Part shown: positions 3,001 through 32,000 of the stretch, piece after piece
Position numbering within the stretch: position 1 is the first letter of the stretch
Layout of the letters: the number at the start of each line of letters is the position of its first letter
NCBI GenBank assembly: GCA_000503875.1
Contig: CP006913.1
Coordinates: 570,001 to 602,000, forward strand
Source of the DNA: Candidatus Saccharimonadota bacterium
GTDB taxonomy: Bacteria; Patescibacteriota; Gracilibacteria; Absconditabacterales; Absconditicoccaceae
DNA: 32,000 bases
Reading direction: 5' to 3'
Made by a program: the position numbers and the translations under genes
The notes under the pieces: model-generated
The model's database searches: none
Seen by the model: only the letters and a program-made list of their open reading frames with translations
What the model was told of the DNA's origin: nothing

Positions 3001-6000
3001 TATTCTCTGCTATTTTATTGATTTCACCAATATATAAATTTCATGAATAAGAAATAGATGATCAGGTAAGTAATGATCAAGAATATTGTACAGGAGCAAG
3101 CTGTTTTGGTAAAGATATTCCATAAACATAAGATATCAATTCACCTGTCGTTGGTTTCCAAGTAGCTATTTGTCACCTAGAATTACAATAATCATACACT
3201 CAGGTATTAGTAAGTAATCAGTTAGAAAGATTAAATGGATTAGCAATATTTCCACAACGAAAACATTCCCCATTTTCCACCATTCATCATGTTCGTCATA
3301 TATTAGTATAGACACTGGAAGTTCCTCCTGTCAAAAAAGTAATAATTCAATCATCATCATTAGCATACAATTTTAATGTTCCATAATATGTATTTCACGT
3401 AGATACAGAAAAAGATACTCATAAATTATTGTTTAATAGACTTACATGATTTAAAACATTATAATTTGAAGAATTAAAATACAGTCACTGTTGATTATTA
3501 TATATTTGAGCATTATTTATTATAGTACCTGACGAAGAAATCAGAGATAATCAATAAGTTGTATTATTATATAATTGAGAATTATTTACAACATTATAAT
3601 TTGAAGAAGAATAAGCTATTCAAGCTTGAAGATTATTATATGATTGAATATTATTCAATGTATTATATTGAGAATTAGAATATATATATATTCAATGAAT
3701 ACTATTATTATATGTTTGAATATTGTTTAATATATTATTAGAAGAAGCTCTTAAATAAATTCCATAGCTTTTATTGTCTGAAGTTTGAATATTGTCGAGT
3801 ATATTATTATTAGAACTATCTAAATATATTCAATAACAATTAGTGGAAGTATTCTTACATTTACTCGTTTGAATATTTCTTAGTGTATTAAAGTGAGAAG
3901 AAGAAAGTGATATGTTTGTATCATTATTAAATGAAAATTGTGCATTATTTAACATATTGTTTGAAGCACTTTGAATCTGTATTGCAGTACTCGTATTATT
4001 ATAAAATTGCAAATCATCTAAAATATTTCGATTTCCCATTAAATACATTCCATAGACATTATTATAGGATTGAACAGCGTGTACTGTATTATTTGATGCG
4101 TTTAAATAGATACCATAACTATTCGCCGCATGAGATCATCATTGTCCATCACCTGTTCCGTTAAAAGAAATATTTTCAAAAATAGTATTCTTTTTGGCGT
4201 TAACAAAAAACAATCAATTACCTAGTTGAGTATTTGAATAAAATGTTCATGAATCGTTTTTAACGATAACTGCATTACAGGTATTTGGATTAATTGTTCA
4301 ATTAGTTATATAAGTACCAGGATCCAAAACATATATTGTATTAGATACTAATTGATTTGGTAATATATTAGTTCCAGGAGATACCGTTGAAACTCTCATA
4401 TTTTCCACATCACAAATACTTGGATTTGACCAGTTTATGGTATACGCTGTTTTGTCCTCACCATATATTCCCGTACCATATAATGCTGATATAATATCAC
4501 ATGTGTTCGGCGTTTGAGACCAGAATCAGCTATTTATATAGACGTCATTATTCCAAATAGCACTATAGTTTGATATACAATTATTACAGGTGGTGTTATT
4601 ATCTTCTCCGATTTTATCAACTTCACCAATATATAAATTTCAAGAATAAGATAAATTAGAAATAACTGGATTGGCTCATGAATATTGCACGGGAACTACT
4701 TGTTTTGGCACATTTGTTCAATAGATATAAGTAATAGATTCTCCCATTGCTGGTTTCCATCCTATTATTTTACCCTTACTATTACAAGATCGATAAATTC
4801 CTGTATTCGTTAATAGTCCAGATCCAATATTAATCGGATTAGTGATATCTGCACAACGAAAACAAGTATTTATACCTATAGTTCCTGTTGTCCATCCAAA
4901 AGCACTATAATCATTTAATCATGCGGCGATTTTTCATCAACTATTTTGTCGATCAGCATCATTTTCATAAAGTTTTAATAATCCATAATAACTACCTGTC
5001 GACGTTCAAACAAAAGATATTCATGTAGTATTATTTAATATACTAACCTGATTAAAAATAGTATTTGTAGCATTACTTAAACCTATTCAAGCGCCATTAT
5101 TATTATATGATTGAATGTTATTAAGGATAGTGTTTGACGATGCTATTTGTAATCAATCTTGAGCATTATTATAGCTCTGTATATTATTTAAACTATTATT
5201 AGAAGCGGATATATATATTCCATAGTTATTATTATCATATGATTGAATATTATTCATGACATTGTTTAATGCACCAATTTGTATTCCATAACCAGTATTA
5301 TTATATGATTGTATATTATCCAATGTAGTAGAATAAGAATTAGATCACAAATAAACTCAGACACTAGTATTGTTATAGGTCTTTATAGTATTTAATATAT
5401 TTCAACTTGAAGAAGTATTAATAAATATTCAGTTACTACTATTATAAGCATTTACGTTACGTAATATGTTATAATTAGAACTGGAAAGGAGATAGATTGA
5501 ATGATTACTATTATTATAAGAATCTATAGTGTCAAGAATATTATTTGATGATGAATTTAAGTAGATTCCATATTGGTTTTTATAAGACTGAATAGCATAT
5601 AAAGAATTGTTTGATGATGAATTTAAATAAATCGAAGCCGTGCTGGCATTATACGATTCAATAGCATGCAATGCATTATTTGGCGATGAAACAAAAAATA
5701 TTCCATATCCATTCGCTGTATGAGATCATCATAGTCCATTTCCTGTGGCACTTATATGTATATTATCAAAAATATTATTCTTTTTTGTATTAACATAAAA
5801 CATTCCATTGGCTAGTGGTCAAGTAGAATAGAAAACTCAAGTTCAGTTTTTAGTAACGATTGCATTACATTTTTCTGTATTAATGGTTCCCGTTGTAATA
5901 TAATTCCCTGGCTCCAAAAGGTATATTGTATGCGATGATAATTGATTCGGCAAAGTCCCTGTACCGGGAGAAATAGTAATGACTCTTATATTTTCCGTAT

Positions 6001-8332
6001 TACAAAGATTACCATTTTGAACTCCTGATCGATTAGAACTATACATCGTTCTATCTTCTCCATAACGTCATGTACCATATAATGCTGCCACCATATCACA
6101 ACTATTTGGATTTTGATCCCAAAATGCTCATGTTATAAAATTAGAATTATCCCAATTTACTGTATATTTATTAAAACAATCATTGCATGTCATATCTGTA
6201 TTTTCTTCTATTTTATTTATTTCTCCTATATACAAACTTCATGAATAATAAGAGTTTGATCAAGTAAGCTGAGACAATATATAGAAAACAGGTTGTATCT
6301 GTTTAGGAACATTTATACCATAAATATAAGAAAGACTATTGGGTGATGATGTCCATCATCATATCTTTCATCTACTATTACAAGACCGATATATACCAGT
6401 ATTTGTTAGCGTTCATGAAGCTATATCGACTGGATTGGTAATATTAGCACAACGAAAACATCCACTATCAATTTCTATAGATCCTCATGTCCATCACAAA
6501 AAAGAAATATCAGCAAGATTCCCTGTAATCAAACCAGTAAGTATTCCATCTATATTTTGATCATTTTCAGAAAAAATAAGTGTATCATAATATTTATTAT
6601 TGGTCAGTGTTCAACCAAGAGATAAACCCGTTTGATTATTTTTAATAGATACTCTGTTTAATATCGTACCTGAAGTTGAGTTAAGTATTATTCAATATAA
6701 CGCATTATTATAACTTTGTGCATTATTTATTACATTATAATGAGAGTTATTAAAGATATAAATTCCATAACTTGAATTATTATACGATTGAATATTATTT
6801 AACGAATTATAACTAGAAGTTGTTTGAATAACAATTCCATTATCTGAATTGTTATACGATTGAATATTATTTAACGAATTATAATTAGATGTAGAAAATA
6901 GATATATTCAATATGCATTATTATAACTTTGAATATTATTTAATATATTATTAGAAGAAGTCTGAAGTTGAATACCATAATTAGTATTATTATAACTCTG
7001 AATAGTATCCAATGTTATAGAATTAGAAGTAGTATTTAAATAAATTCCCTTATTATTATTAAGTAATTGAATATCATGTATAGTACTATTTACTATAGAT
7101 TGAAAATATATTCAGTTTGCATTTTTTGTATGAGATCATCACCATCCATTTCAAGATCAATTAACACTAATTCCATCTATTATGATATTATTTTTCGTAG
7201 TAGCATAAAACATTCACTGAGTAGCGGTACTCAATTGTACTGATGAATAGAAATTGATATTTCATGTACCACCAATTACTGCAGAGCATCAATTCATAGC
7301 AATAGCTCCTGTTGTAATATAATTTCCTGATCATAAAATATAAATAGTATTTGCTGCTAGAGCAATAGGTAGAGATCATGTTCCTTCAGTAAGATATACA
7401 ACAGACATATTTCCCGTAATACATGTGACTCCAGTTCGATTTCTTGTATATGCAGTCCTTTCTATTCATCAACTTCCATCTCCATATAACGCTCTTATCA
7501 CATCTTGATTTGTTGGATTATTATTCCAGAAATCATCTGTTATAAAATTGTCATTGTCCCATTGGATTGATCCTACAGTAAACAAGGTAAAGTGATTTGT
7601 AGTAAATACTACATAGGAACTATTATCGATTTCTTGAACCATAGTTTGTGTATGAAGTTTCCATTCTTTTCCATTTTCTGATGAATAGATATTAACTTTT
7701 TCTCCTTGATTATATCATGGAGCTGGCATTCTAATTGTTACATATTCATCTTGTCCTTTCTCATTTTTAAAGAACAAAGATTCTTGATCTGATCATACTT
7801 CAATAAGAGAAACAGCTGATTTATTATCTAATTTATATTGTTTAGGGTCGATAAAAGTTGGAACTTTTATTTCCTTAGTATAAAAGGTATTTTTTTTAGT
7901 TTTAATAGCAATTCATGCTGGAATTTCCACTTGAGCAACTTTATTATTCAAGGTGTTTTTTGAAATAAGAACTGTTTGAACAAGAATTTTTCCGTTTTTA
8001 GAAAGAGAAATATTTTTATCAGTTATATTCTTAGTTTCAGATGAAATATTAGTATCAAATACATTATTGGTAACAGATACTGTTTTATCGTCCAACAATT
8101 CTGATGAAGATGAATCAACAGTAGTTGGTTTCGAATTAGAAATAATCACTGGAGTGAGATCTATTACTCAGGTATTTTCTTTTATATCCTGTTTATAAAT
8201 AGGTTCTGGAATTATAGGAGAATTTAATTCTTCATTTTTTTCTCAAAAGAAAAAATAAGCAACAGAAAGAATTATAGATAAAAATAGAATTATTAAGAAA
8301 TACATAGCTCCCTTTCTATATTTTTTTTTCAT
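1..8332 (-). CDS. Giant cell-surface protein (putative adhesin). The N-terminal 2,777 codons are visible and the C-terminus runs off the left edge. It has an N-terminal membrane anchor/signal, then at least five tandem modules of a Cys-rich linker domain plus right-handed parallel beta-helix (PbH1-type) repeats.
   Basis: The minus-strand frame with codon first bases at coordinates = 1 mod 3 has no TAA/TAG from 8332 down to 2 (checked line by line); only TGA interrupts it. Track fragments 7913..8149, 5843..6046, 5429..5671, 3830..4048 and 119..310 all lie in this frame. ATG at 8332 gives MKKKYRKGAMYFLIILFLSIILSVAYFFF (hydrophobic anchor); an alternative in-frame ATG is at 8305. There are many 22-24 aa turns of the type S-x-N-N-I-L-N-N-I-Q-S-Y-N-N-x-x-Y-G-I-Y-L. 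Each helix starts with P-G-x-Y-I-T...C-N-A-I/V, as in pectate-lyase-fold proteins. Confidence 0.85.
1670..6460 (-). repeat. Three tandem, clearly paralogous ~1.6 kb (about 532 aa) coding modules inside the giant gene. More diverged copies flank them at about 6600..7560 and 1..1670.
   Basis: The conserved C-F-R-C anchor (plus-strand acaacgaaaaca) sits at 6449..6460, 4853..4864 and 3254..3265, giving periods of 1,596 and 1,599 bp. The blocks L-Y-I-G-E-I/V, F-W-x-Q-N-P-N-x-C-D, A-L-Y-G and P-G-x-Y-I-T recur in the same order in each module. Confidence 0.8.
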
Positions 8333-8699: not shown

Positions 8700-9641
8700 T
8701 TAATCGATATTTTCTATTAAGATATCTTTCATTTTTTCATATATTTCTTTCACATCTTCTGGTGATTCATAATTAGGAAATAATGTCTGTCCCAAAGCAA
8801 CTTTTACATCAAAAGAATCAGCTAAAGCAACATTATTTGCAATCATTTTTTCGATTTGATCAGCTGTATATCAATTAGTTATAAGTACCTCACTAATCTC
8901 CTCTTCTGTCATAATATGAAAATTTCATACAGGTTGTCTCCTATCCATTTCATATATTTTTTTCCCATCTTTTACAGCTAATGCTACTTCCCAAGCTTCT
9001 TTATCAGATTTTTTTATATAATGATAATTTGTATTAACTACACAAGGTACACCAAGCTCCTGACACAAAGAAAATATATAAGTATTTATACGTTCTAACT
9101 CTGAATTTTCACTATGAAGTTGTGCTATAATTTCTCCATACACTGCATATTCACCAAGAACAGATTGCAATAAACGAATGATTTCACTAATTTTTTCACG
9201 AGATTCATCACGTAAAATCATTTTTCCTATCCATGATTGGTTACCACCAAATAAACAAACAACTCCATCAAAAAAAGAACGAATAGCTCAAAGATCAACT
9301 TTAGGTTTTCCTTTAACTCAAATAGTATTAGCATAAGAAGTAAGTTCCAGAAGAGATGAATATCATTTTGTTGTTTTAGCAAGAAAGACTATATTGCCAA
9401 CTTGATCAATAGGATAGATAGAAGTTACATCCAAAACAAATCCAAGTTCAACTCAAAGAATAGGTTTAATTCATTCATCTTTACAAGCTCACAAAAACTT
9501 AATAGCACCAAACATACCATTATAATCAGTGATTGCTATTGCTGACATTCCAAGTTCTTTGGCTCTAGCAGCAATTTTTGCTGGTTTACCAATGGCTTCG
9601 AGAAATGAAAACGTGCTATGTCCATGAAGATGAATAAACAT
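8700..9641 (-). CDS. dnaE: DNA polymerase III alpha subunit, N-terminal PHP domain only (313 aa). It is truncated relative to full-length DnaE of about 1,100+ aa, so it is a fragment or a split gene.
   Basis: The table-25 translation starts MFIHLHGHSTFSFLEAIGKPAKIAARAKELGMSAIAITDYNGMFGAIKFLGACKDEGIKPILGVELG, a typical DnaE PHP N-terminus. Similarity continues to ...LGQTLFPNYESPEDVKEIYEKMKDILIENID, then TAA at 8700..8702. The palm/fingers regions are absent and nothing downstream (8333..8699) is coding. No in-frame TAA/TAG; the track ORF 8925..9221 is in frame. Confidence 0.75.
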
Positions 9642-9663
9642 TATCTCTTACTAACAAATAAAA

Positions 9664-11205
<1,542 letters not shown>

Positions 11206-11285
11206 TCATAAAAAAATAAATGCTGATCTTTTAATATAGTTTCTACTTATTTTTTCAAGTCAACCTCACATTTCTTACACTCGAA

Positions 11286-13938: not shown

Positions 13939-13971
13939 CCCACTCCGTTACTATTTATTTAAACCAAAAGG

Positions 13972-15129
13972 ATGAAGAAATATAAAAATTTAATTCTTTT
14001 TCTAGTAATTACTTTCTTACGAAGTATCTTTTTGGCAATGGCCAAAATTTTCTTACGATCTGCACTCAAAGAAGATAATAGGACATTGGAGGAAATTGCT
14101 GGATATATCAGTTTATGAGCAACAATATCATATTTTATAGGTGGGGCGTTAAATTATACTTTTCGTAAAAAACCTATTGTGATTGTTTCATGAATAGTCG
14201 TTATTATATGCTTGATTTATGGATATATGACAGATTATTTTCCACTCAAAAATTTTGCATTTATTATTTCTATTATGTGATTTTTTTATGGATTACGACT
14301 TACCGTAAAAGGAATTCTTACCACTGTAGAAATCATGGAATCATGATTGGGTGAAACAAAAATCAATGCTATCACAAATATAGTTATATTCCTATGATTA
14401 TTAACAGGTTCTTATTGGTGATTTGATATATACGATCGTCTACAAGGCGTTGGTGTTATTTGACTTATTTGAACAGTTGCGTTAGCAACAATATTGATTC
14501 TTTTTACCAAATATGATATAAATTTCAAAAAACATACATTACATAGCGCAATAACAAAGAATATTCCAAACATTTTCTGATCTATTAAAAAATACTTTAG
14601 TTATCTTATTCCAATAGGAGTTTTACGAGCAATTTCTACTGCTGTAGGACAAAAAATGTTGGAAATAGGAATAGATATTATGAATAAAACACCAACAAAG
14701 GGAATTATAGTAATTGTTGTTTCTATGGTATGAGCAATAGTAGGACATATCATTTCTACTCCAATAATCAAAAGAAAAAGAGTTCTTTCTACATTATTAA
14801 CTATATTATTAGCTATTAGTATAATGTTTTTCCCCAATTTCTTAGCACAAAAAGATACATTTTTATTTATGATGTGATATAGTGCATATTTATGAGTTAT
14901 ATTCGGTGTTATCGTAAACTTAATAGAAGGAAGATTTTATCATCAAATAGGTGAAGACAATAGAAAAGAATTCTGATCTGCAGCTTATGGAATTATCACG
15001 AGTATTATTATCTTTCTTATTATGATTATAGGAAATAATGTCACTAAAAAGATTGGAATAAATGCAAGCTTTATCTTTTATTGAATAACAGTTGCTGCAA
15101 TTATCCCTTTTATAAGAAGAGTTGAATAA
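13972..15129 (+). CDS. Polytopic integral membrane protein, MFS-like transporter (385 aa; family uncertain)
   Basis: Continuous table-25 ORF (checked codon by codon) made of roughly 10-12 hydrophobic segments separated by short K/R-rich loops, e.g. NLILFLVITFL.., IVIVSGIVVIICLIYGY.., GIIVIVVSMVGAIVGHIIS.., ITSIIIFLIMIIG. The opposite-strand track ORFs 14601..14837 and 14920..15177 are shadows. Confidence 0.75.
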
Positions 15130-17226: not shown

Positions 17227-18702
17227 TTAATTTTTTGTTATTTCATAGCCATCTTTGTTATCTTTTACATTCCATCAGAGCTCAGTTATCTTATTCCTAA
17301 GTTCATCAGCCAATGCATAATTTTTATCTTGCTTAGCTTGAATTCTTTGATCAGCAAGAGCAGTTATTTCGGCAGGAATATCAAGTTTTATTTCTTCAAT
17401 AAGATCAAATAAACCAACTTTTAAAAAACGTTTTTCTAATCGATATAATAAATTAATAATTTCTTCATTTATATCACTAATATAAGTATTAATTACAGCT
17501 ATTACTTTTGGTGTATTTATATCATCACAAATCGCATCCAAAATTTCTTTATGAAATTTTCTTGCTTGATCAGTTTTTAGATCTTTTCAAAGCTCAATAA
17601 AAGATCAATCTATAGTAATATTTTCAAAATTTAATTTTCTTATCTGTACTTTTTTTTTAAGATTATATCTACTTTGTTTGGCTACATCCATACTATTTCG
17701 AGTAAAATCGAAAAAACTACGATAATGAGTTGTAAAAAAGAAATATCTAATATCCAAATAATCATATCATTTATCCAAAACTTCATAAGGAGAAACTATA
17801 TTACCATCAGATTTTGACATTTTTTTACCATTCATATTCACAAACTGATGATGAATTCGGTATTTTACCCATGGATGAACATCAAAAGCACATTCAGATT
17901 GTGCAATTTCATTTGTATGATGAATAGGAATTAAATCATATCATCCATGATGAATATCAAATTGGTTTCATAAATATTTACTAGACATTGCACTACACTC
18001 AGCATGCCAACCTGGAAATCAAATTCATCGAGGACTTTCTCGTTCCATATCTCTCTTACCACTACCTACATGAAATTTCCACAAGGCAAAATCAGTAAGA
18101 TTTTTTTTTCATCACATATCAACTCTCTCTCATCATTGAATTCCCTCTAAATGTTTTTTATAATTTAAACCAAGTAGTTTACCATAATCACTAATTTTAC
18201 TGGTATCCATATACACTCCATCACCATCAATAATATATGTATATCATTTCTCTTCCAACATTTTAACAAGGTCTATCTGTTCTTGAATATATTCTGTAGC
18301 CCTAGGCATAACATCAAATTCATCTATATTCAATCATTTAAAAAAATCTCTAAAAATTTGTTCATATTTTTTTGCAACATCTCGAGCAGATATTCATTCT
18401 TTTTTTGCAGCCTTTTCCATTTTTTCATCACCATCATCACTATCTCAAGCCAAATGACCAACATCAGTAAAATTACTCATAGATATTACTTTATATCAAA
18501 GAATATTTTTTATTACATTTCTGATTAAGTCAGCCGTAAAAGCAGCTCTTACATTACCAAAATGAGGCATACCATAAACCGTAGGTCCACAACTATAAAA
18601 ACCCACAAAATCTTTTTTTGGTCAATGATAATTAGGATCTTCCATCAAGGGTACAAATTCTTCTTTTTGACGAGTAAGAGTGTTATAAAGATGCAGTTTC
18701 AT
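17227..18702 (-). CDS. cysS: Cysteinyl-tRNA synthetase (491 aa)
   Basis: MKLHLYNTLTRQKEEFVP; CGPTVYGMPHFGNVRAA (HIGH-like); ..ESP-x-GIGFPGWHAECSAM; FDIHHGGYDLIPIHHTNEIAQS; GKKMSKSDGN. No in-frame TAA/TAG between 18702 and 17230 (checked). Track ORFs 17275..17541 and 18622..18816 are in frame. The start is placed at the conserved MKLHLYNT rather than at the upstream extension to 18816. Confidence 0.95.
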
Positions 18703-20166: not shown

Positions 20167-20260
20167 TTATAGGAACAATTGATTTTTCTCACCATTTCAT
20201 TACGCTACACGCAATAGTCGATTCTCTGTAATCCTCTAGCAATTTACCTTACGTAAAACC

Positions 20261-22696
20261 ATGTTCTGAATTCTTGGGAACAATGCAAGGAATCTCCTCT
20301 ATATCAAAAAGTTTAACGATAAAAAAGCTATTCGTCTGGCGAACAACAAACTCGAGACAAAAAACTTCTTATCAGAAAGAGGAATCCCTTTCGCCAAAAC
20401 TTATGGAATCATATCCAATCGTAATGAACTTTATGACTTTGATTTTTCTTATTTACCAAAAAAAACATTTGTCATAAAACCAAATCAATGAAGTAAATGA
20501 GAATGAATTTTGATAGTAAAAAATATCACCAAAGAAGAACAACCAATACACAAGAAAAAAAATACAATAATAGATAATTTGGAAAAACGACGAGCGAAAA
20601 TAATACCCTATAAAACAATTCCAATCAATAGAAAAGAACTTTATCATGTAGGAGAAAAATCAATCAATGACGAAACATTTAGAAGATATTTGCTTGATAT
20701 CATCGATTGAAAATATTCTATGACAATGGGAAATGACAAAGTAATTATAGAAGAAAAACTAATTCCAGGAGAATTATTTAAAGAATTTTGTGAACGATGA
20801 TTAGCAGATATTAGAATCATTGTTTTCAATCTTGTTCCTATTGCTACAATGATTAGAGTGCCTACAAAATATTCCAACGGAAAGGCAAATTTAGCACAAT
20901 GATGATTAGGGCTTGGAATAGAAGTATGAACAGGAAAAATAACATCTATGCTTCGAAAAAACAAAGTATATACACGTAAATTTCCCAAAGAGTTTGGTCA
21001 TTTTTTTGGAAAACAAATTCCTTATCGAAACGATATTTTATTCCTTTCATCAAAAGCTCAATATTATGTAAACCTTGGATATCTTGCTCTCGATCGAGTA
21101 ATAACAAATGAGGGACCAAAACTTTTGGAAATCAATGCAAGAGCCGGTTTAGAGGTACAAAAAGTAACAAACACTCCTCTAGAAAAAATATTAGAAAAGA
21201 TTGAAGATCTCAATATTCAAGATCCAGAAAAATGAGTAGAAATAGCAAAAACTTTGTTTAGCAAAGAATCTAATGATCTTATCAAACAACAAAAAATTCT
21301 TTATTTATCTCAATACGGGAAAGTTATTTTAAAAAATGATGATGATGAAACTATAGATGTTATCGTAGAAATTGATCTTAATAAGCAAAATAATTATGTA
21401 ACGCCAAGTATATATGATAAAATCAAACAAAAATCTGATTTTATTTTGGATATGTATGAAAACGACATAATTCTTAAAAAACCAAAACTTATTGCAAAAG
21501 AACAAATAAGTGAAAATAAAATTATATTAGGAAGAAAAACTGCAGAAAAATTTCTCATAAAACCTATTCACAAAACATTCGAAAAGATAGAAATTATCTC
21601 TTCTGATAAATTGCTTCCGCTGGAGACCAAAGAACTACATATCATCGATGAAAGATTAGAAAAGCTCTCCAAAAGATTAAACCTCTCAGCAAAACTCAGA
21701 CCAACAAACTATTTCAATGAACTTGATAATTTTATTACACGAAAAGGTAATTATAATCCTATTTTTCAATATAAACGACCAACTGAAGAAAAAATATTAG
21801 AAACAAAAAATGATTTAGAAAAACTTCAAGAAAAAACAAATAAATTAGAAAGTCCTATAAAAAAACTTTTTTTAGAAAAAGCAGATGAATTAACAAATAA
21901 ATTATTCTTACTACAATCTTATACAAAACAAAATTTTAAAAACATAGCAATATATAATGAGAAACTTTTTGGTTCATTTGATCAGGAACTTCTCAAAAAT
22001 TCAAAAGAAAAAGTGTTTTCACAAAAGGAAAATAATCAAGAAATATTGGGGGAACCATTGAAATTATCAGAAATAGAACAACTTATAGAACGCTATCTTG
22101 CTGAAAAAAAAATATATGGTGTTGATATCGTATTCAGTTATGATAATCTTTCTAGAATTTCTGTCATTATGGGAAAAGAAATCAGAATCAGTATTTCTAA
22201 ACATGGTATTTTTAGAGAAAAAGAAATTCTTTCAATTCTGGCTCATGAAATAGATACACACCTTGTAAGACATCTTAACGGATTAAAATCTTGACGAAAA
22301 ATATTTAAATCATGAACAGGATATTATCTAAAGGATGAAGAAGGTTTAGCTATATGGAATGCAAGTAAATTTTTGCCTGAAGAATATGAAAAAGACAGTA
22401 TATACAAAAAATATATTTTAATAAACGATTGAGAAAAAATGGATTTTAAAAAACTATGTGAAACAGCTAGATTCTATTATCCAGAAAGAAGTAATGAATG
22501 ATTATTTAAAACAGCTATTAGAATAAAGAGATGATTAATAGATTCTTCAAGAATTTGAAAAGGAACAAATGCAATTCAAAATAAAATATATTTAGAATGA
22601 TACGAAAAGATAAAAGAAATTTTCAAAAATTGAGGAGAAATCGATAGATTATACAAGGGGAAAATTAAAATAGAAGATTTAGATTTTATAAAATAA
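20261..22696 (+). CDS. Fusion protein (811 aa): N-terminal ATP-grasp amino-acid ligase (alpha-L-glutamate-ligase-related, sugar-transfer-associated type) plus C-terminal DUF1704/QEGLA-family (MATCAP-type) metallocarboxypeptidase
   Basis: Track ORFs 20510.., 20948.. and 21254..22294 share one frame with the ATG at 20261; only TGA intervenes. ATP-grasp blocks: FVIKPNQGSKGEGILIV (20477..20509; three Gly are TGA), GLADIRIIVF, VPTKYSNGKANLAQGGLGLGIEVGTGKI, GPKLLEINARAGLEVQ (21128..21154). DUF1704 blocks: KLRPTNYFNELDNF..NPIFQYKRP, H-E-I-D-T-H (HEXXXH, 22244..22261), E-E-G-L-A (22337..22351), RIKRGL..GKGTNAIQNKIYLEGY. Stop TAA at 22694..22696. Confidence 0.9.
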
Positions 22697-22705
22697 ATAT
22701 TTCCA

Positions 22706-23584
22706 ATGAAACTACTAAGATTATATGAATCTAGAGAAATAAGTAAAAAAAAAGAGAGATTTGATACAGAAGCAAAAATAATATGAGGCATAGAGACTTA
22801 TTTTATGCCATATTTAGATATATATTATGATGGGAAATTCAGAAACATTATAGATTGAAAAGAGATCGAAGATGCTGATATATACTGGATACCATCTACT
22901 GTAAAAAAATGAATTAGCATGAATTCTTGATTAATATATTATCTAGGAATATTAAAAAAGAAAAAGATAATGGATCCTTTTAAATATTATGGAATCCTTT
23001 GAGGAAAATTTCAACAAACATTGTTTTTTAATCATTATTGACACAAGACACCAAAAACATTTTTTTTCCAAATAACCCAAGAACATAAAAAATCCTATAT
23101 AGATATTATAGAAAAAAATTTCACTTATCCATTTTTAACCAAAGATTTATATTTGGAAAAAGGGAAATGAGTAATTCTTATTAAAGATAGAGAAGAATTA
23201 ATAAACAACATAAATAAATATACAGACCAAGGAATATTAATACAAGAATGTATAGAAAATACCTGAGAATATAGAATATTATGTGTTTGAAAAAAAATAA
23301 TAGGAAGCTTCAAAAGATATAATCCTAACCATTACAAAAACAATACATACAAATGAACACTCTTTGAAAAAGCAGAATTAACGAAAGAAACAAAAAAAGA
23401 AGTTCTGAAAATGGTGGCTAGATATGGCATAGAATTTGCTGGTATAGATCTCTTAATCGGTAAAGATTGAGAACTCTATTTTTTGGAAATAAATTCATGA
23501 CCTCTCTACAAAAGAGCCGAAGAAGTTTTGGAAATAAACGTAGTAAAAGAACTTTTATTGTATCTTAAAAAAGGTGGAAAATAA
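22706..23584 (+). CDS. RimK/GshB-like ATP-grasp ligase (292 aa)
   Basis: Continuous table-25 ORF (checked) starting 9 nt after the previous stop. Motifs: YPFLTKDLYLEKGKGVILIKD, GILIQECIENTGEYRILCVGKKIIGSFKRYNPNHYKNNTYKGTLFEKAEL, GIEFAGIDLLIGKDGELYFLEINSGP. These follow the RimK pattern (K-P..G-S-x-G-x-G-V, Q-E-F-I..D-x-R, R..F-x-x-N..G-G, G-x-D-L..E-x-N..P). Confidence 0.85.
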
Positions 23585-23605
23585 TATTTATATACTACCA
23601 TAATA

Positions 23606-24856
23606 ATGAAAAAGATTGCTGTAACATGAACTAAATGAAAAACAACAATAATAAGATTAATCAATTTTATTTTATTAGAATTATGAAATAAGACATTGTC
23701 TGTCGATTCAGATTGAGTATATATAAACTGAAAACAGAAATTAGACAAAAAAGATTCTATAAACATCTATTGATTACTACCCTGAAAATGCCCATGACGT
23801 TTCCTATATTTAGGATATGATTATAAGAATAAATATTGGAAAATAGATTATGCAGTATTAGAAACAATTATTGGCTGTTATGTTACCTGACTTTGATATA
23901 AAAAACACGATATATGAGTTTTTTCAAATGTATTTGAAGACCATATAGGAGGCCTATGCTCCGCAATCAAAACAAGAGAAGATTTAGCGTTAAGAAAATA
24001 CAGAATTATTTCAAAAATTAAAACAGGATGATATTTTGTATACAATATGGATGATCAGCTAATAGCAAACAATATGGATGATCATATATCAAATGAAATT
24101 AAAAAAATATGAGTAACAAAAGATTTAGAAAAATTTCAATGAAAAAAAACATGTATATTCATTTCAAAAAAAGAAGTTAAAATAAAAATTAGCAACAAAA
24201 TTATTAAATTTGATCTATCCAATAACAAGTTTTCTTTCTATTGAGAATATGAACCAGCATTATACAATATTGGTTTATCTATTTGATGATTATTAGGATT
24301 ATTAGGAGAAGAAATATTTATATCAAAACACAAACAAATAAAAGAAAGTATAGATAGATATACAACTGATATATTAGGAGGAAGAATGATCTTATTGGAA
24401 CAAAATGGCAGAAAAATTATATTGGATTATGCACATGAAAAACAGTCATTATCAGCAGTTCTAAAGCTAGCAAATACATTGAAAACAGGGAAATCTATAG
24501 GTGTTGTAAGACTATCTCCCGAAAGAGAAGATAAAATATATCATAACATAGGGAAAAGTATTGCAAGCCTTGCTGATGAATTTATTGTATACGATAAAAT
24601 TGATTGAATAGAAGACAAATCATATACAATAAATACAAAAGAAATAAAAAACAAGAAAAGAAACCCATGAGAAATAATGCATTTATTTGCTGAATGAATT
24701 AAAACAAAAAATAAAAAGGTACAAGAAATTATTTATCGAAAAGATGCAATAAAATATTGATTAAAAAACACTAAAAAAGGAGATGTAATAGTAATCATAG
24801 TAAAAAACAGCAAAGAAACAGGTGTTTTTATAAAAAAATACCTTAAGATAAAATAA
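23606..24856 (+). CDS. Mur-ligase-family protein resembling the M (Mur-ligase-like) domain of cyanophycin synthetase CphA (416 aa)
   Basis: P-loop I-A-V-T-G-T-K-G-K-T-T with Gly encoded by TGA at 23627..23629 and 23636..23638. LSVDSDGVYINGK (compare CphA T-T-D-G-I-Y-I). DYAVLETIIGCYVTGLGYKKHDIGVFSNVFEDHIGG (compare CphA A-V-L-E-T-A-R-G-G-I-L-R-x-G-L...N-I-x-x-D-H-L-G). ILDYAHEK (compare D-Y-A-H-N-P). The frame was checked; track ORF 24386..24607 is in frame. It starts 21 nt after the ATP-grasp gene. Confidence 0.85.
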
Positions 24857-24906
24857 GCTGATACAAAAGGAAGAAAACACAGAAGAAAATTCTTAATCAC
24901 TTTCCC

Positions 24907-24935
24907 TTGATTCCCCCACTCAAATCACTTAAATA
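24907..24935 (+). promoter_or_regulatory. Candidate promoter for the 7TM gene (TTGATT, 17-nt spacer, TAAATA)
   Basis: ttgatt at 24907..24912 and taaata at 24930..24935, in the 109-bp gap before the ATG at 24966. This is a weak -10 match. Confidence 0.25.
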
Positions 24936-24936
24936 T

Positions 24937-24960
24937 GAGGCAATTTATTTGCCTCTTTTC
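24937..24960 (+). terminator. Hairpin plus T-tract immediately upstream of the 7TM gene. It is either a terminator/attenuator for the ligase genes or a 5' leader hairpin.
   Basis: gaggcaa (24937..24943) / ttgcctc (24949..24955), 5-nt loop, then ttttcttctt running into the ATG at 24966. Confidence 0.4.
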
Positions 24961-24965
24961 TTCTT

Positions 24966-26492
24966 ATGAAAAAACTCTCATTACTCATAACAATACTTCT
25001 TTGACTTTTTGTTTTTCCAGCATTTGCTGAGGAACAAGCACACAATGCTGCATGATGTGAAAATAGGACATATGACATCAAGGGTTTATCTGATATCAAA
25101 AAAGGTCAAACTGCTGAATATAGTATGGTTTGGGCAAAAGATAAATATCTTTGACCTATAAGCTTTAACTCTATAAAATTCACTTTAAGCAAAAACAACA
25201 AGGTTATTTCAAAGAATAATTCTGATTTTTTCTCATTTACTCCTTCTGAATTAGGAAAATATACATTACAAGTAGAAGCAATCGATAACCAAAACTGTTA
25301 TAGTAAAATAAGCAAAACCATAACTACTCATGATAAAATCATTCTCTATATAGGGAAAGCTAGCGAAGATCTTCAAGTAGAATTCGATGATACTTTCAAA
25401 AAAAACAACACTCTTTTTAAGAAGATCATCATAAAAGAAAAAAAACTTTTTGGAGAAGATGAATTACTATGAGAACTCGCTGAAAATAGTAGTTATATTA
25501 AAAACAGTTCTATTATTATTATTAATATAAGCAATTTTGATAGTTTCTTTCAATTATTATGAAATATTAATAAGACAGAGACGCTCAACTTAAACAAAAA
25601 AGATATTTATCTTATAACAGATCTTAATAAATATTTTCTCAAAAGAATAGTTGCAAAATATCTCAATACCGTATGAATAGAAAAAATTTACACCGTAAGC
25701 GATAAAGATTTCTTTAGTGTTCTTTCAAAACTTTCTTTTAAAAAAGATTTACAAAACGATCCTACAATAACGACATTTTCATTATTATTTCAAGAAGCGC
25801 CCAAATATATTCTGATTTCTTATTTAATAGATAATTTAATTTACAATTGATTTCCTATTGATTTAATAGGTATATTACTAGTTTTATGTATAGCAACACT
25901 AGTCATAAGCATCTTTAGACAAGTTATTTGATTCTCTGTCTTTGGAATTTATAGTCCTCTTCTTTTTGGGCTTGCCATGGCAATTCTCAATATAAAATTA
26001 AGTCTTATCCTTTTAGCTATTGGAATTTTAGCCAAGGTCTTAACTCATCTTCTCAACAAAAAAATATATCTTCTTTTTAATACTAAATTATCTGTCTTAG
26101 TCGTTCTTTATTTTCTACTGACAATCATAGTTCTTGGGCTAGATAAAATTCTTCACACCAACATTATAAATCTGGATATATTCAATAATGGATTTATTAT
26201 TTTCCCTATTATGTTTATTATTATTGTTACTGATAAAGTATTCAACGAAGGATTTAAGGTATTTAGTCTAGGATGGTGGATTTCTTTTGGAGAATTTTTA
26301 ATTGTAAGTTTCTCTGTATATGGATTATTAAATCGATGATGGATGAAACATATATTATTATCATACCCAGAAAGTATTCTTATTGTTCTTTTGTTACATA
26401 TAATTATCGGTAGATTTACAGGTCTTCAATTATTAGAATATTTCCGTTTTATGCCTCTTATCAAAAAACATTTCGATAGTGAAGAAGAATAG
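24966..26492 (+). CDS. Membrane protein (508 aa): signal peptide, ~290-aa extracytoplasmic domain, and a C-terminal 7TM_transglut-type seven-helix module (the partner of RimK-related ATP-grasp ligases)
   Basis: MKKLSLLITILLGLFVFPAFA (signal). The C-terminal half is seven hydrophobic helices: FRQVIGFSVFGIYSPLLFGLAM..., IIFPIMFIIIVTDKV..., and the family-typical tail YPESILIVLLLHIIIGRFTGLQLLEYFRFMP (26409..26450; compare G-R-Y-T-G-Y-R-L-x-E-x-x-R-F). The frame was checked from 24966 to TAG at 26490..26492; track ORF 25977..26339 is in frame. Confidence 0.85.
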
Positions 26493-27443: not shown

Positions 27444-30400
27444 ATGAAAAAATTATTTTCACTAATTACAAGCTTTGCTCTAATATTTTCTTTGTTTTCC
27501 AATCGAGTAATAGCACTCACATGGACTATTGAATACAGTCCTAGTAGTTTAACCAATACTGATGTTGTAGCAACCATCACTGGTTTTGATGAAACAGGAA
27601 CAGTTATCCTCAACAATGGATGATCTCCCATTTATACATTTACCAATAATAGTTCTTTTGATTTTGAGTTATCAGGTGATATCAGCACAGGTACCGCAAA
27701 TGCAAACGTAACATGGATCGATAAAGAAGCACCTCAAATCATAAATATAACTGGATGACAATATTTCAAAACAAACATTATCCCAACCATTATTGATTCA
27801 AATTATTCAGGAGCAACACTCAATGGCTTAGAATATACAGGAACAGAAATTACTGATGAAGGAAATTATACACTATTTGTAGAAGATACATTAGGGAATA
27901 ACCAAACCGTTTCCTTTACTATAGATAAAACATTGCCAACAGCAAGTATCGATTATTCTCATACAGGAATCACGAATCAAGATGTTATAGCAACCATTAC
28001 AGGATTTTCTGAAACCATCACCGACCTCAATAGTACAGGGACTACCTTTACAACAAATGGAACATTCACTTTCACCTATCAAGATTTAGCGGGAAATTTG
28101 GGAACAACTGTAGCTGAAGTCACAGGTATTGATAAAACGCCACCTACAGCAATCGTAGATTATTCTATTCTATGACCAACAAATAGTGATGTTATAGCAA
28201 CCGTTACCGGATTTTCTGAAACCACAACAAATCTGAATACACCAACACATACTTTCACATCAGATGACAGTTTTATCTTCACGTATGAAGACGAAGCAGG
28301 GAATACAGGATCATCAGTAGCAACCGTTACACGAATCGACAAAGAAATGCCTACCTATAGCGGAATAACAACATGATGATTATACGGAAACGAACAAACA
28401 ATTACCTTCAGCGATAATAAAGCAGGCGTTAGCGCAACACTCAATTGAGCATGATATACTAATGGAACACCTATCAATGGTTATGGAATTTTCGAATTTA
28501 TAGTTACAGATACTGCGGGAAATACTACATGAGCCACCTTTCAACTTGATACGACAGTACCAACAATAACAATTAATGGTTCATCACCCCTATATCTTGA
28601 AGTCTTTTCTCCCTACACAGAAAGCTGAGCAACATGGTCAGATAATAGTAGTTCAGGAACGGTAAGTGATATGATTGGAGCAGTAAACACAAACATCATT
28701 TGAACCTATACCATTGATTATTTCTATAGCGATGGTTTCCATACATGATCTACACAAAGAGAAATATTTATCCAAGATACAACGGCACCAATAATAACGC
28801 TCAATGGAGATAATCCAGTAACTATTGAACGCACATTCTCTTATACAGAAAGCTGAGCAACACGATCAGACAACTACGATGGAACAGGCGATATAACAAT
28901 AATTTCATGATCGGTAGATACAAACACAGTTTGATCATATAACATAAGTTATGAAAAAACAGATACTTCATTAAATAGTAGTTCGCTATCAAGAACGATC
29001 AACGTCATAGATACTATACACCCTACAGCAAATATTATCTATTCAAAAACATGAATAACAAATCATGATGTAGTAGCAACTATTACAGGATTTTCTGAAA
29101 CTACAACAAACCTCAATACAGCAAATTATACTTTCACAGGAAATGGAACCTTTATTTTTACTTACGAAGATCTTGCGGGAAATACATGATCGACACTAGC
29201 AACCGTTACATGGATTGACAAAGAAATGCCTACTGCAAGCCTACGATACGATCCAATGGGACCATCATGGACCAATGGAAGCGTTTTTGTACAAATAACA
29301 TGATTTTCTGAAAGTATAACGTGATTAAATCAACCAGATTATTTATTTATTACCAATGGAACCTTTGTTTTTAATTATCGAGATATAGCCGGAAACACAG
29401 GAACAAATACAGCAACCGTTACATGGATTGATATTACGCCACCTACTATTGGACAGGCAACTATTTCGGTTGGAACAACAGGAAATAACGGTGCTACATT
29501 ATATTATAAAGGAATAATTGATATCAAAGCAACCGTTAGTGACGCTTGATGATCAGCTCTCGATGGATCAACATGTGAATACACACTCGACAATGGAGCA
29601 ACACGAAATCCAGCATGATTTAGTAGTACATACTGCCAATTAACAAGCTTAGATCCAGCAACAAATATCCAACTCGCATTTAGAATACAAGATACTGCAA
29701 CAAATCTAACAACAGGAACTACGAATAATTATATTTTTGATAATACAGCACCTAGTACCACGGCAAATCCAAGTTCATGATTAAGTAATACAAGCATACC
29801 TGTAATACTTTCTAGATCAGATATTGGAATCTGAACATTTTCAGGAACACGATATTGTATAGATACGACGGATACCTGTACACCAAACATTGCAGGTACA
29901 GTAGCAAGCATTACCGGTGCTGCAAACACTTCAGAAACAAAATATCTGAGATATCGTTCAATAGATAGATTAAACAACACGGAAAGCATAAAGAGTAATG
30001 TCTACACAATAGACAAAGTACTTCCCTCTATCACAGGCACAACAAGCTCTTCAAACAACGCTACAAATTCAGGATATGCAAAAACGAATGACATCATAAC
30101 AATCTGATTTTCAAGCACGAGACCACTTGCAACACTACCTACCCTTACTATTTCTGGAGGTAGTTTAACAACAGGTATTGTAACTGATCTTGGAGGGAAC
30201 AACTACTCTGGTACCTATATAGCAAAAGTAACAGATATCCAGGGACAAATGAAATTTATCGTAAATATGCAAGACACCTTAGGTAACACAGGAACAGCAA
30301 TCATAAATAGCGTTATTCTCGATAGAACAGCTCCTGCTGGTATAGCATTTACTTCACCAGCTGCAGGTGCCTTTTGGACATCAGGACGAAATTATGATAT

Positions 30401-32000
30401 CAGACGAACAACAGGTACGGAAACTAATTTTTGACCAACAAGCATCAAGATAACCTATTCAATCAATGGATTTAGTGGAAGTTCTACATTAGAAAATGGA
30501 ACAGGAAATAGTGGAACCTATACACGAAATAATTTCAATCTTACAGATAATTTCCAAACAAGAATTTTTGCAACAGATCTTGCAGGAAATCAAACAATAA
30601 TAACAAGTAGTGTAGTACAGATCGATAATATATCGCCTATTGCTGCAACATTTATTGCACCTACAGGTGGCGAATATTTCAAAGGAGGAAGTGGTTATCT
30701 TATCACATGGACAGGAGGATATGATGAAAATGTTGCATCAATAACATTGGAATATACAACAAACAATCGAGTATCTTCTGGTCTTATTTCAAATACAATA
30801 CCAACAAGTAGCACTTCTTATCTACGAACAGCACCAGCACTCAATTCCAATACCATAAAATTACGTGTTACTTATAGAGATTATGCATGACTACAAGGAA
30901 TCAAACAAACCCCGACGGTATTCACTATTGACTCTACAAAACCAAATATAACCAATATAATGTCAGGAAGAATTTATACAGGAACCATCACTCCAACCAT
31001 TGTAGAAGTTAACTATTCTGGTAGCATATTAACAAGTTCGACAGGAACAACGAGATATACAACAACTGGATATTCTATTACACAAAATGGACGATATGAT
31101 TTATTTATCGAAGATAAAGCGGGTAATTTTACAGGACGTATATTTGCGATAGATACCATTGCTCCAACCGTACAAATAGATACAGGAACCATCTATAAAA
31201 ACACAGGATTTACCCTAACAGCAACAGGTATTGACGCCACTGCTGGTATTTCTTGATATCAACGAACAAAATTCAGTGGAACAGGAACTCTCACTTTCGG
31301 ATCTGGGACTTCTAATACAACATCAATTACAGCAAGTACAGGAGGAACCTACATTATTCAAGTTAAAGCAATAGATAAAGCAAATTTAAGTTGATTTGCA
31401 ACGTTTACGCTAATTCGAGATAACCAAGCACCTACACTTTGAAGTTGAACAGTTACAACAGGAAACAAAATAGCTACATTTACTTTTTTCTCCAACAAAA
31501 CAGGCACAGTTATCTATAGTGGAAGCTGTGGAAATGGAACAACAACATCAATAACAAATAGCTGAGCTACTACAATATCCTGGACTTTAACAAACAATAC
31601 GTATAGTAATTGTAACATCAAAGTTACTGATAGTTTTGGAAATTATAGTCGAATAGCTGTTCCTAGCTTTACTATCAATTATACAGCTCCAAGTTGATGA
31701 GGTGGTTGATGAGGTTGAGGAGGAGGATGAACAACAATACCAACATGTACTCTTTCAAATCTTGTTTGTGAAAATTGAAAATACACCAAAAAATCTGGAG
31801 TTTCTTGTCAATGAGGCGATCTTTGATATTCTTGTTCAGAAACAAGTAGTGGTACATCTACAGGGACAACATTAGAGTTTTCTGACAGTATTTTATCAAC
31901 AGCTTCAGCAGAAACTATTGCAGCAACATTAGTCGGAATTCAATGAGTTGCTGAACTTAAAAAAGCTTATATTTATGGAAAATATTTAGGATTAACAAGT
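27444..32000 (+). CDS. Second giant cell-surface protein. The N-terminal 1,519 codons are visible and it continues past the right edge. It has a signal peptide, arrays of bacterial Ig-like domains, DUF5011-like domains, a poly-Gly linker and a Cys-rich segment.
   Basis: ATG at 27444 (MKKLFSLITSFALIFSLFSN, signal-like). The frame with codon starts = 0 mod 3 has no TAA/TAG to position 32000 (checked line by line). Track ORFs 27933.., 30249.. and 30960.. are in frame. Recurrent ~70-aa units T-N-x-D-V-I/V-A-T-I-T-G-F-S-E-T...T-F-T-x-N-G-T-F-x-F-T-Y-E-D-L-A-G-N-x-G...A-T-V-T-W-I-D-K-x-x-P are characteristic of surface Ig-like repeats. Confidence 0.9.
27519..29444 (+). repeat. Five copies of a ~70-aa Ig-like coding repeat (27519..27734, 27936..28145, 28146..28352, 29022..29231, 29232..29444), interrupted by other domains
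   Basis: Each copy carries T-N-x-D-V-x-A-T-(I/V)-T-G-F-(S/D)-E, an A-G-N-x-G block in four of the five copies (the first has D-I-S-T-G instead), and ends in V-T-(W/G/[CGA])-I-D-(K/I)-x-x-P. Confidence 0.7.
28557..29021 (+). repeat. Two tandem DUF5011-like Ig domains (28557..28784 and 28785..29021)
   Basis: VPTITINGSSPLYLEVFSPYTESGATWSDN...IGTYTIDYFYSD aligns with APIITLNGDNPVTIERTFSYTESGAT-[CGA]-SDN...VGSYNISYEKTD. Both match the P-x-I-x-L-x-G...Y-x-E-x-G-A-x-A-x-D...G-x-Y-x-I-x-Y pattern. Confidence 0.65.
31695..31730 (+). other. Twelve-codon poly-glycine linker written as tga tga ggt ggt tga tga ggt tga gga gga gga tga
   Basis: Read directly in the frame of the giant ORF: six TGA interleaved with three GGT and three GGA, flanked by ..Y-T-A-P-S and T-T-I-P-T-C. 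Confidence 0.9.

Follow-up and report, generated by a model that had tools for sequence, protein, structure and literature searches.

CGA codons in the Ig-like repeats of a surface-protein gene very probably encode tryptophan under the Absconditabacterales genetic code

The question raised by this locus is how CGA should be read in g14, a surface-protein gene whose Ig-like repeats carry CGA where sister copies carry TGG. A preliminary description of the window, by which we mean the entire 32,000-nucleotide stretch of DNA analysed here, had implied that CGA stands for tryptophan. The reading of the neighbouring codon TGA is clear. With TAA and TAG as the only stops the window yields 19 open reading frames of at least 150 aa, 34 kb in total, against 7 frames and 4.2 kb under table 11, and the window is coding-dense only when TGA is a sense codon. 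A run of 12 glycines in g14, in which TGA is mixed with GGT and GGA, shows directly that the residue is glycine, and the TGA sites of the cysteinyl-tRNA synthetase (CysRS) gene are Gly in 59.7% of the pooled residues of 79 standard-code orthologues, many single sites exceeding 90% Gly. TGA is a sense codon for glycine in this window.

Profile searches identify g14 as an Ig-like repeat protein with two PF16403 domains and a K319L-like PKD domain. The PF16403 match (Bact_surface_Ig-like, formerly DUF5011) scores 75.3 bits against a gathering cutoff of 27 and covers two stretches. The g14 gene call on the source contig, ENA k127_922976 (287,776 nt, from a sediment metagenome), is 1829 aa long, and by codon count the part of g14 within the window holds 16 CGA, 9 TGG and 41 TGA codons. 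Its layout is as follows.

27444..>32000, forward strand: surface-protein gene g14, ATG start at 27444, in a frame with only TAA/TAG stops, extending past the window edge
27519..27734, forward strand: repeat A1, W slot TGG at 27714..27716
27933..28145, forward strand: repeat A2, W slot Gly, GGT at 28125..28127
28146..28355, forward strand: repeat A3, W slot CGA at 28332..28334
28554..28781, forward strand: PF16403 domain B1, T-E-S-G-A-T-W with TGG at 28635..28637
28782..29015, forward strand: PF16403 domain B2, T-E-S-G-A-T-[CGA] with CGA at 28863..28865
29019..29234, forward strand: repeat A4, W slot TGG at 29211..29213
29235..29444, forward strand: repeat A5, W slot TGG at 29424..29426, CGA in variable columns at 29244 and 29379
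30321..30629, forward strand: domain C1, CGA in the I-x-W slot (30405..30407), in the Y-x-W slot (30525..30527) and in a variable column (30387)
30630..30941, forward strand: domain C2, I-x-W slot TGG at 30708..30710, Y-x-W slot CGA at 30825..30827
31695..31730, forward strand: poly-Gly run of 12 residues, six TGA interspersed with six GGT/GGA

Direct reading of the sequence confirms the codons on which the preliminary description relied: TGG at 27714, 29211, 29424, 28635 and 30708 and CGA at 28332, 28863, 30405, 30525 and 30825 are all present and in frame with the ATG at 27444. The peptide contexts given for them are right if TGA is glycine, except that the third TGG copy of repeat A reads V-T-W-I-D-I and not V-T-W-I-D-K. 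The fifth copy, repeat A2 with its glycine (GGT) in the W slot, had been left out. The term signature tryptophan is overstated for the PF16403 pair, since 79% of 298 standard-code copies have Ala in this slot and 6% have Trp. Only among this lineage's relatives is the slot Trp (49 of 71).

Does the placement of CGA in these repeats differ from that of ordinary arginine codons? Nine of the 16 CGA codons lie in alignable repeats: Trp dominates the family column of four, a paralogue has TGG opposite another, and the columns of the remaining four are variable. The mean Trp frequency of the family column is 0.40 for CGA (n=9) and 0.46 for TGG (n=8) as against 0.002 for the remaining Arg codons (n=7), and the corresponding mean Arg frequencies are 0.014, 0.007 and 0.53 (AGA/CGT/CGC). 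From these alignments, CGA placement in the g14 repeats exceeds chance, with a column profile that resembles that of TGG and is unlike that of AGA or CGT. The repeat-A slot is Trp in 69%, Asn in 25% and Arg in 1% of 565 standard-code copies, while domain C, compared across about 1,860 homologous copies, has Trp in 98.8% at the I-x-W slot and in 91.9% at the Y-x-W slot, with Arg at 0.1% or less. The domain-C query was the TGA-free stretch 30435-30887 translated with table 11, so that CGA was written as Arg and the search was biased against Trp; the matches show Trp at the slots despite this bias. All domain-C copies were pooled, table-4 translations included, and flagging such translations by their Trp richness was dropped since domain C is inherently rich in Trp. 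AGA, CGT and AAA are thus far from being as common as TGG at the repeat-A and domain-C slots, and in a codon-aware check of three Absconditabacterales orthologues the slot columns hold TGG, CGA and occasional other codons, with zero AGA, CGT or AAA. Where PF16403 and domain C have a conserved Arg, the codon is AGA or CGT; the conserved Arg of PF16403 is AGA in B1 and B2 alike (28758 and 28992). At the DNA level, the paralogous segments 28320-28355 and 29199-29234, and likewise 28611-28646 and 28839-28874, are near-identical apart from the TGG/CGA codon. Several CGA codons occupy variable columns in which Arg would be equally acceptable; at CGA 29379 the paralogues have Q/E/E and the family column is Arg in 9% and Trp in 0%, and CGA 30768 in domain C2 falls in an ambiguous alignment.

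An independent control is provided by the CysRS gene on the opposite strand, where a second aminoacyl-tRNA synthetase gene also carries CGA codons.

17227..18702, reverse strand: CysRS gene, with CGA at 18040..18042, 18028..18030 and 17857..17859
9664..11271, reverse strand: methionyl-tRNA synthetase (MetRS) gene, five CGA codons, four of the five at aromatic/hydrophobic positions

The CysRS control set consists of 79 standard-code organisms from a scan of genome contigs, originally aimed at gathering Absconditabacterales loci, which also returned one relative. The three listed CGA codons of CysRS fall in W-x-S-P-W-G and Y-W-x-H motifs, at sites that are Trp in 78/79, 74/79 and 79/79 of these orthologues. 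A separate gene on the other strand thus agrees, with CGA at three universally conserved Trp positions. Pooled over all CysRS CGA sites, the orthologue residues are 59.7% Trp and 3.0% Arg, similar to TGG sites (56% Trp in the same 79 organisms), whereas CGU/CGC/AGA/AGG sites are 53% Arg and below 1% Trp. PDB alignments of CysRS also place CGA at Trp positions. For MetRS, a MATCAP domain and an aminotransferase, such alignments put CGA at positions that are aromatic, hydrophobic or occupied by Trp, and no conserved Arg falls under it. The fifth MetRS CGA lies in a poorly aligned stretch, with Arg opposite in one PDB homologue. Across CysRS, MetRS, the aminotransferase, the MATCAP domain and g14, a conserved Arg lies under CGA at 0 of about 27 evaluated sites.

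Codon usage in the window points in the same direction. The counts are CGA 64, TGG 48, AGA 160, CGT 30, CGC 3 and CGG 1, with AGA the main Arg codon and G+C between 0.25 and 0.36 along the window; Trp makes up 0.46% of codons, or 1.08% if CGA is counted as Trp. From their placement, CGU, CGC, AGA and AGG are still arginine codons. The sole CGG is paralogous to CGA 4790..4792 in the same giant gene and shares its T-G-I-Y-x-S-C-N-S context, a comparison that concerns a single CGG only.

6386..6388, reverse strand: sole CGG of the window, in T-G-I-Y-[CGG]-S-C-N-S

The nearest named CysRS relatives are labelled Candidatus Absconditabacterales, Absconditicoccaceae or 'Gracilibacteria' (54-72% identity), and the top match in the genome-contig search is an Absconditabacterales MAG. 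Judged by these best-hit names, the source organism appears to belong to the order Absconditabacterales. Among 119 deposited CysRS proteins of this order, the Trp columns show a mixture of W and R without K, while the true Arg columns show R and K without W. At the DNA level, TGG, CGA and CGG swap at the same CysRS columns in five relatives, with CGG found at the invariant Trp columns 232 and 282, and TGG, CGA and CGG likewise interchange at the same columns of orthologous surface proteins. An apparent R in the repeat-A slot is found in 19% of copies from code-25 relatives versus 1% from standard-code organisms (Fisher p = 7e-12); in one relative copy (L087) the slot is TGA, i.e. Gly. The decoding tRNA was not found: ARAGORN predicted no tRNA genes in the window, where an Rfam scan was also empty, nor in the related loci L002 and L082, and eleven Absconditabacterales loci gave tRNA-Leu(CAA) alone. 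This search in relatives covered about 130 kb of unique Absconditabacterales sequence and about 200 kb of loci altogether.

Could CGA still be arginine, at repeat and enzyme positions that tolerate a Trp to Arg change in this lineage? The CGA codons at 29244, 29379 and 30387 do lie in variable, polar columns, and other organisms have D/K/E/A/R in the final CGA column of CysRS. However, this reading requires the loss of Trp at three CysRS positions that are (near-)invariant in 79 diverse orthologues and Arg at domain slots that are 92-99% Trp in about 1,860 copies. It also leaves the window with an abnormally low Trp content, and the real Arg columns use AGA or CGT, with relatives never mixing W there. 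We consider it extremely improbable. An ambiguous CGA, with Trp and Arg competing or chosen by context because a leftover tRNA that accepts Arg, or a different tRNA through wobble, still reads the codon, is a possibility that the authors of the published code raised themselves (PMC8629427), the published cases being computational only, and about half of the evaluated CGA sites in our data lie in uninformative columns. Frequent misreading would nevertheless be costly for a codon that is more numerous than TGG and occupies Trp positions critical to the structure of essential enzymes, and with no evaluated CGA at a conserved Arg, ambiguity appears very improbable. Hardly credible is the proposal that CGA yields neither Trp nor Arg, being either converted to UGA (Gly) by C-to-U editing or decoded as another aromatic residue. 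Glycine does occupy the repeat-A slot in one copy of the window and in one relative, and Phe or Tyr is found in homologues at several enzyme sites, but the best-conserved sites are specifically Trp and not Gly, Phe or Tyr, and relatives alternate CGA and CGG with the canonical Trp codon TGG. The reading of CGA as Trp, to which the preliminary description pointed, is instead supported by the g14 repeat columns, by CysRS and by the codon-aware counts in relatives.

We therefore conclude that the window very probably comes from a member of the Absconditabacterales (candidate division SR1) with UGA as Gly, CGA and presumably CGG as Trp, and CGU, CGC, AGA and AGG as Arg. With the code of the order in use, CGA would be an ordinary synonymous Trp codon in the Ig-like repeats. 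Judging from the literature, a tRNA with a UCG anticodon and Trp identity (G73, no A20) would read CGA and wobble to CGG, while tRNA(GCG) would preserve CGU and CGC as Arg. Trp codons could then turn over by synonymous drift between TGG and CGA by way of CGG (TGG <-> CGG <-> CGA); a genome of 29% G+C would keep CGG rare, with its three G/C, and TGG and CGA would be about equally common because each has two. CGA accounts for 57% of the window's Trp codons and, in several relatives, for 48-62%. It seems unlikely that CGA overtook UGG by selection rather than drift, as a compensatory second reassignment after UGA became Gly. On such a proposal, tRNA-Gly(UCA) could wobble onto UGG and make it error-prone as a Trp codon, and capture of CGA/CGG would let Trp escape the UGN box, perhaps en route to abandoning UGG. 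The rank correlation between CGR share and TGA usage over seven non-independent loci, calculated by hand, is positive (about 0.68) and not significant. A neutral alternative, with equal G+C of TGG and CGA, a link via rare CGG and a predicted ratio near 50:50, fits equally well.

The reading of CGA as Trp is already known, in that Shulgina & Eddy published the same reassignment for the order in 2021 (eLife 10:e71402; PMC8629427), with UGA to Gly and CGA/CGG to Trp, and it is treated as established in PMC13092985. No new question is opened, since the code has been described. Bacterial sense-codon reassignments are rare, and the Absconditabacterales one is supported by computation only; we found no peptide-level or proteomic proof of CGA as Trp in the literature searched, so a multi-gene example has some confirmatory value. 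The additions made here are the excess of CGA over TGG in the window and a mistranslated public CysRS record (P0001, ENA contig k127_922976), in which table 4 (UGA = Trp) makes 24 of 491 residues wrong. Standard pipelines mistranslate such genomes, as table 11 fragments genes, table 4 turns Gly into Trp and table 25 turns Trp into Arg, and these errors spread into homology searches, structure prediction and metaproteomic databases.

The window resembles the published Absconditabacterales systems in its reassigned codons (UGA, CGA and presumably CGG), in Arg usage dominated by AGA, in the rarity of CGG, in its low G+C (0.29 versus 0.29-0.38), in its clade by best-hit names, and in the type of evidence, namely CGA at Trp columns of conserved single-copy genes. 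In that study, tRNA(UCG) was found in nine of ten species, and the ten species have 13-37 CGA and 35-76 UGG per 10,000 Pfam-aligned codons (PMC8629427). In contrast, the window has more CGA than TGG (61 versus 46 per 10,000 codons over all ORFs), although the measures are not strictly comparable. We do not regard the genome as more advanced than those published, because codon usage was measured differently and comparable ratios of CGA to TGG occur in other uncultured relatives. NCBI table 25 (Candidate Division SR1 and Gracilibacteria) shares UGA as Gly but still assigns CGA and CGG to Arg, with the result that its proteins show Arg where Trp is meant. Anaerococcus and the RFN20 Bacilli (Onthovivens), also low-G+C bacteria, have likewise captured an arginine CGN-box codon for Trp. 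However, only CGG is reassigned there, without tRNA(UCG), CGA remains Arg and UGA remains a stop, whereas in our window the reassignment chiefly concerns CGA, with CGG nearly unused.

Judged from DNA sequence alone, CGA in this organism behaves as a synonym of TGG, TGA as one of GGN, and CGT, AGA and AGG as arginine codons. The window has a G+C content of 25-36% and is coding-dense only with TGA as a sense codon: ORFs of 150 aa or more number 19 (34 kb in total) with TAA and TAG as the only stops, and 7 (4.2 kb) under table 11. TGA is about as frequent as GGA (287), and its addition raises Gly content from 4.7% (GGN alone) to 7.7%; Trp content is 0.46% from TGG alone and 1.08% from TGG plus CGA. 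A direct in-sequence illustration of TGA as Gly is a 12-residue poly-Gly run in the Ig-like repeat surface-protein gene g14 (31695..31730), written TGA TGA GGT GGT TGA TGA GGT TGA GGA GGA GGA TGA, with 6 TGA and 6 GGT/GGA codons.

Codon counts in 14 window genes (10,412 codons)
CGA: 64
CGG: 1
CGT: 30
CGC: 3
AGA: 160
AGG: 14
TGG: 48
TGA: 310

The reading of CGA as Trp is supported by CysRS orthologues, by the repeat-family columns of g14 and by relatives. For the window CysRS gene (17227..18702, minus strand), a scan of genome contigs gave 79 CysRS loci of diverse standard-code bacteria and archaea; their translations were aligned to the window protein, the residues being pooled per window codon.

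Residues of 79 standard-code orthologues at CysRS codons of the window
CGA sites: pooled W 59.7%, R 3.0%
TGG sites: pooled W 56%
AGA/AGG/CGT sites: pooled R 53%, W <1%
TGA sites: pooled G 59.7%
18040..18042, minus strand, CGA: W in 78 of 79
18028..18030, minus strand, CGA: W in 74 of 79
17857..17859, minus strand, CGA: W in 79 of 79

The three conserved-Trp sites form the motifs W-x-S-P-W-G and Y-W-x-H, which are also present in four PDB structures, and at two further CGA sites W is the commonest orthologue residue. For MetRS, an aminotransferase and the MATCAP domain, alignment to PDB structures puts CGA opposite F/Y/W, aliphatic residues or variable stretches, and no CGA was found opposite a conserved Arg. 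About half of the evaluated CGA sites fall in uninformative variable columns, which leaves some room for an ambiguous decoding of CGA, a reading that we nevertheless consider very improbable.

Decoding of CGA as Trp is also favored by g14, whose ORF starts at ATG 27444 and extends past the window end, with 16 CGA, 9 TGG and 17 other Arg codons inside the window. The preliminary description had proposed that CGA replaces TGG at the tryptophans of these repeats; all ten CGA/TGG codons that it named are correctly located and in frame with this one ORF, and its peptide contexts are correct with TGA as Gly. Its V-T-W-I-D-K motif holds for the other copies named, but the third V-T-W copy reads I-D-I, and a fifth copy, A2 (27933..28145), has Gly in the slot (GGT 28125..28127). 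Repeat profiles were built from the window copies with CGA kept as X, and homologous copies of other organisms were aligned to them. The V-T-W slot of repeat A is W in 69%, N in 25% and R in 1% of 565 standard-code copies. The PF16403 slot had likewise been taken for a signature tryptophan, but across the family it is A in 79%, W in 6% and R in 1%. For domain C the query carried Arg at CGA, a bias against Trp; even so, 150 representative proteins gave about 1,860 copies with W at 98.8% of I-x-W slots and 91.9% of Y-x-W slots, and R at no more than 0.1%. Both window copies of PF16403 write their conserved Arg as AGA, and domain C writes its own as AGA and CGT.

Mean column frequencies at g14 repeat codons
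CGA (n=9): Trp 0.40, Arg 0.014
TGG (n=8): Trp 0.46, Arg 0.007
Other Arg codons (n=7): Trp 0.002, Arg 0.53

By best-hit names the window is placed in Absconditabacterales, the nearest named CysRS relatives being Candidatus Absconditabacterales, Absconditicoccaceae and 'Gracilibacteria'. In 119 deposited Absconditabacterales sequences, the CysRS Trp columns are W/R mixtures in which Lys is absent, whereas genuine Arg columns are R, occasionally K, and never W. At the DNA level, TGG, CGA and CGG interchange at shared CysRS columns of the window and relatives (column 282: CGA/CGA/TGG/TGG/TGG/CGG; column 232: TGG/CGG/TGG/TGG/TGG/TGG). The Trp slots of three orthologous surface proteins hold TGG and CGA, now and then other codons, and none holds AGA, CGT or AAA. 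The share of 'R' in the repeat-A slot is 19% among code-25 relatives, compared with 1% for standard-code organisms (Fisher p = 7e-12). Slot frequencies in homologous copies and codon data from relatives therefore show that AGA, CGT and AAA are not as frequent as TGG at these slots, contrary to what columns that tolerate Arg or Lys would show.

According to the literature, CGA and CGG would be decoded by a tRNA(UCG) that bears the identity features of tryptophan (G73, absence of A20), and tRNA(GCG) would retain CGU/CGC as Arg; tRNA(UCG) is present in 9 of 10 Absconditabacterales species (PMC8629427). The window itself carries no tRNA gene. TGG and CGA are two positions apart, and CGG would be the sole synonymous intermediate and the only route between them, since the other intermediate, TGA, is Gly. 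AT pressure would keep CGG rare, as it has three G/C; between TGG and CGA, each with two, AT pressure alone makes no difference, so that drift alone predicts about equal use. CGA makes up 57% of Trp codons in the window, and the CGA/CGG share is 0.26-0.62 across the window and six loci of relatives (L002, L082, L083, L086, L087 and L088); it tends upward as TGA is used more (rank correlation about 0.68 over n=7 loci that are not independent). The sole window CGG (6386..6388, minus strand) shares a slot with CGA 4790..4792 (minus strand) in the T-G-I-Y-x-S-C-N-S repeat of a giant beta-helix protein, which fits a common amino acid for both, with one CGG only. A repeat-A copy of L087 has Gly (TGA) in the Trp slot, as window copy A2 has GGT. 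Gly in this slot fits the code, since TGA is one mutation from TGG as well as from CGA, and for the same reason Trp-to-Gly changes may be unusually easy where UGA is Gly.

The giant gene (1..8332, minus strand, past the window edge; 3604 aa on the source contig) has Beta_helix matches and internal repeats, and with the 1829-aa Ig-like protein it brings the share of the window that codes for very large surface proteins to more than one third. Next to MetRS, the sole domain of a stand-alone ORF (8700..9647, minus strand, 313 aa) is PHP, which is N-terminal in DNA polymerase III alpha; a shorter PHP-only ORF adjoins CysRS in L083-L086. A cluster at 20240..26492 (plus strand) encodes an ATP-grasp + MATCAP fusion, a RimK-like ATP-grasp, a Mur-ligase-like protein and a 7TM-transglutaminase-like membrane protein, and looks like a peptide or amino-acid ligation/modification module. 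In L082 the fusion, the RimK-like ATP-grasp and the 7TM-transglutaminase protein adjoin CysRS, and a separate MATCAP protein and an acetyltransferase replace the Mur-ligase-like gene. In the membrane proteins at 13963..15129 and 24933..26492 (both plus strand), CGA lies inside long hydrophobic stretches or at their ends (e.g. F-L-[CGA]-S-I-F-L, G-V-L-[CGA]-A-I-S), where Trp is usual and Arg is not.

Public protein records for such organisms are mistranslated. The database protein P0001, from ENA contig ERZ936476 k127_922976 (287,776 nt, sediment metagenome), differs from the window CysRS solely in that each of the 18 TGA codons is rendered W and each of the 6 CGA codons R, 24 wrong residues of 491, and was therefore translated with table 4. 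Many close surface-protein homologues likewise appear table-4 translated (3-8% Trp).

The observation is confirmed and its reading supported, and the phenomenon is already known for the clade. Shulgina & Eddy (eLife 2021, PMC8629427) described UGA as Gly plus CGA and CGG as Trp in Absconditabacteria, the same codon combination on the same kind of evidence, and stated themselves that experimental confirmation was missing; a 2026 NAR paper (PMC13092985) takes this code in Absconditabacterales as established, and the literature searched yielded no proteomic confirmation. In the window CGA exceeds TGG (61 versus 46 per 10,000 codons), whereas the ten published species have CGA 13-37 and UGG 35-76 per 10,000 Pfam-aligned codons, a measure that differs from ours (PMC8629427). 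We do not claim this excess as a new stage, because the measures are unlike, the window has only 112 Trp codons and relatives are similar. What remains is of confirmatory and practical value, as a clean multi-gene illustration. NCBI table 25 covers the UGA change only, whereas the window also has CGA as Trp, and in Anaerococcus and RFN20 Bacilli CGG alone is reassigned; apart from CGG, which occurs once in the window and may mean Trp, the features of the Absconditabacterales code tested here are all present.
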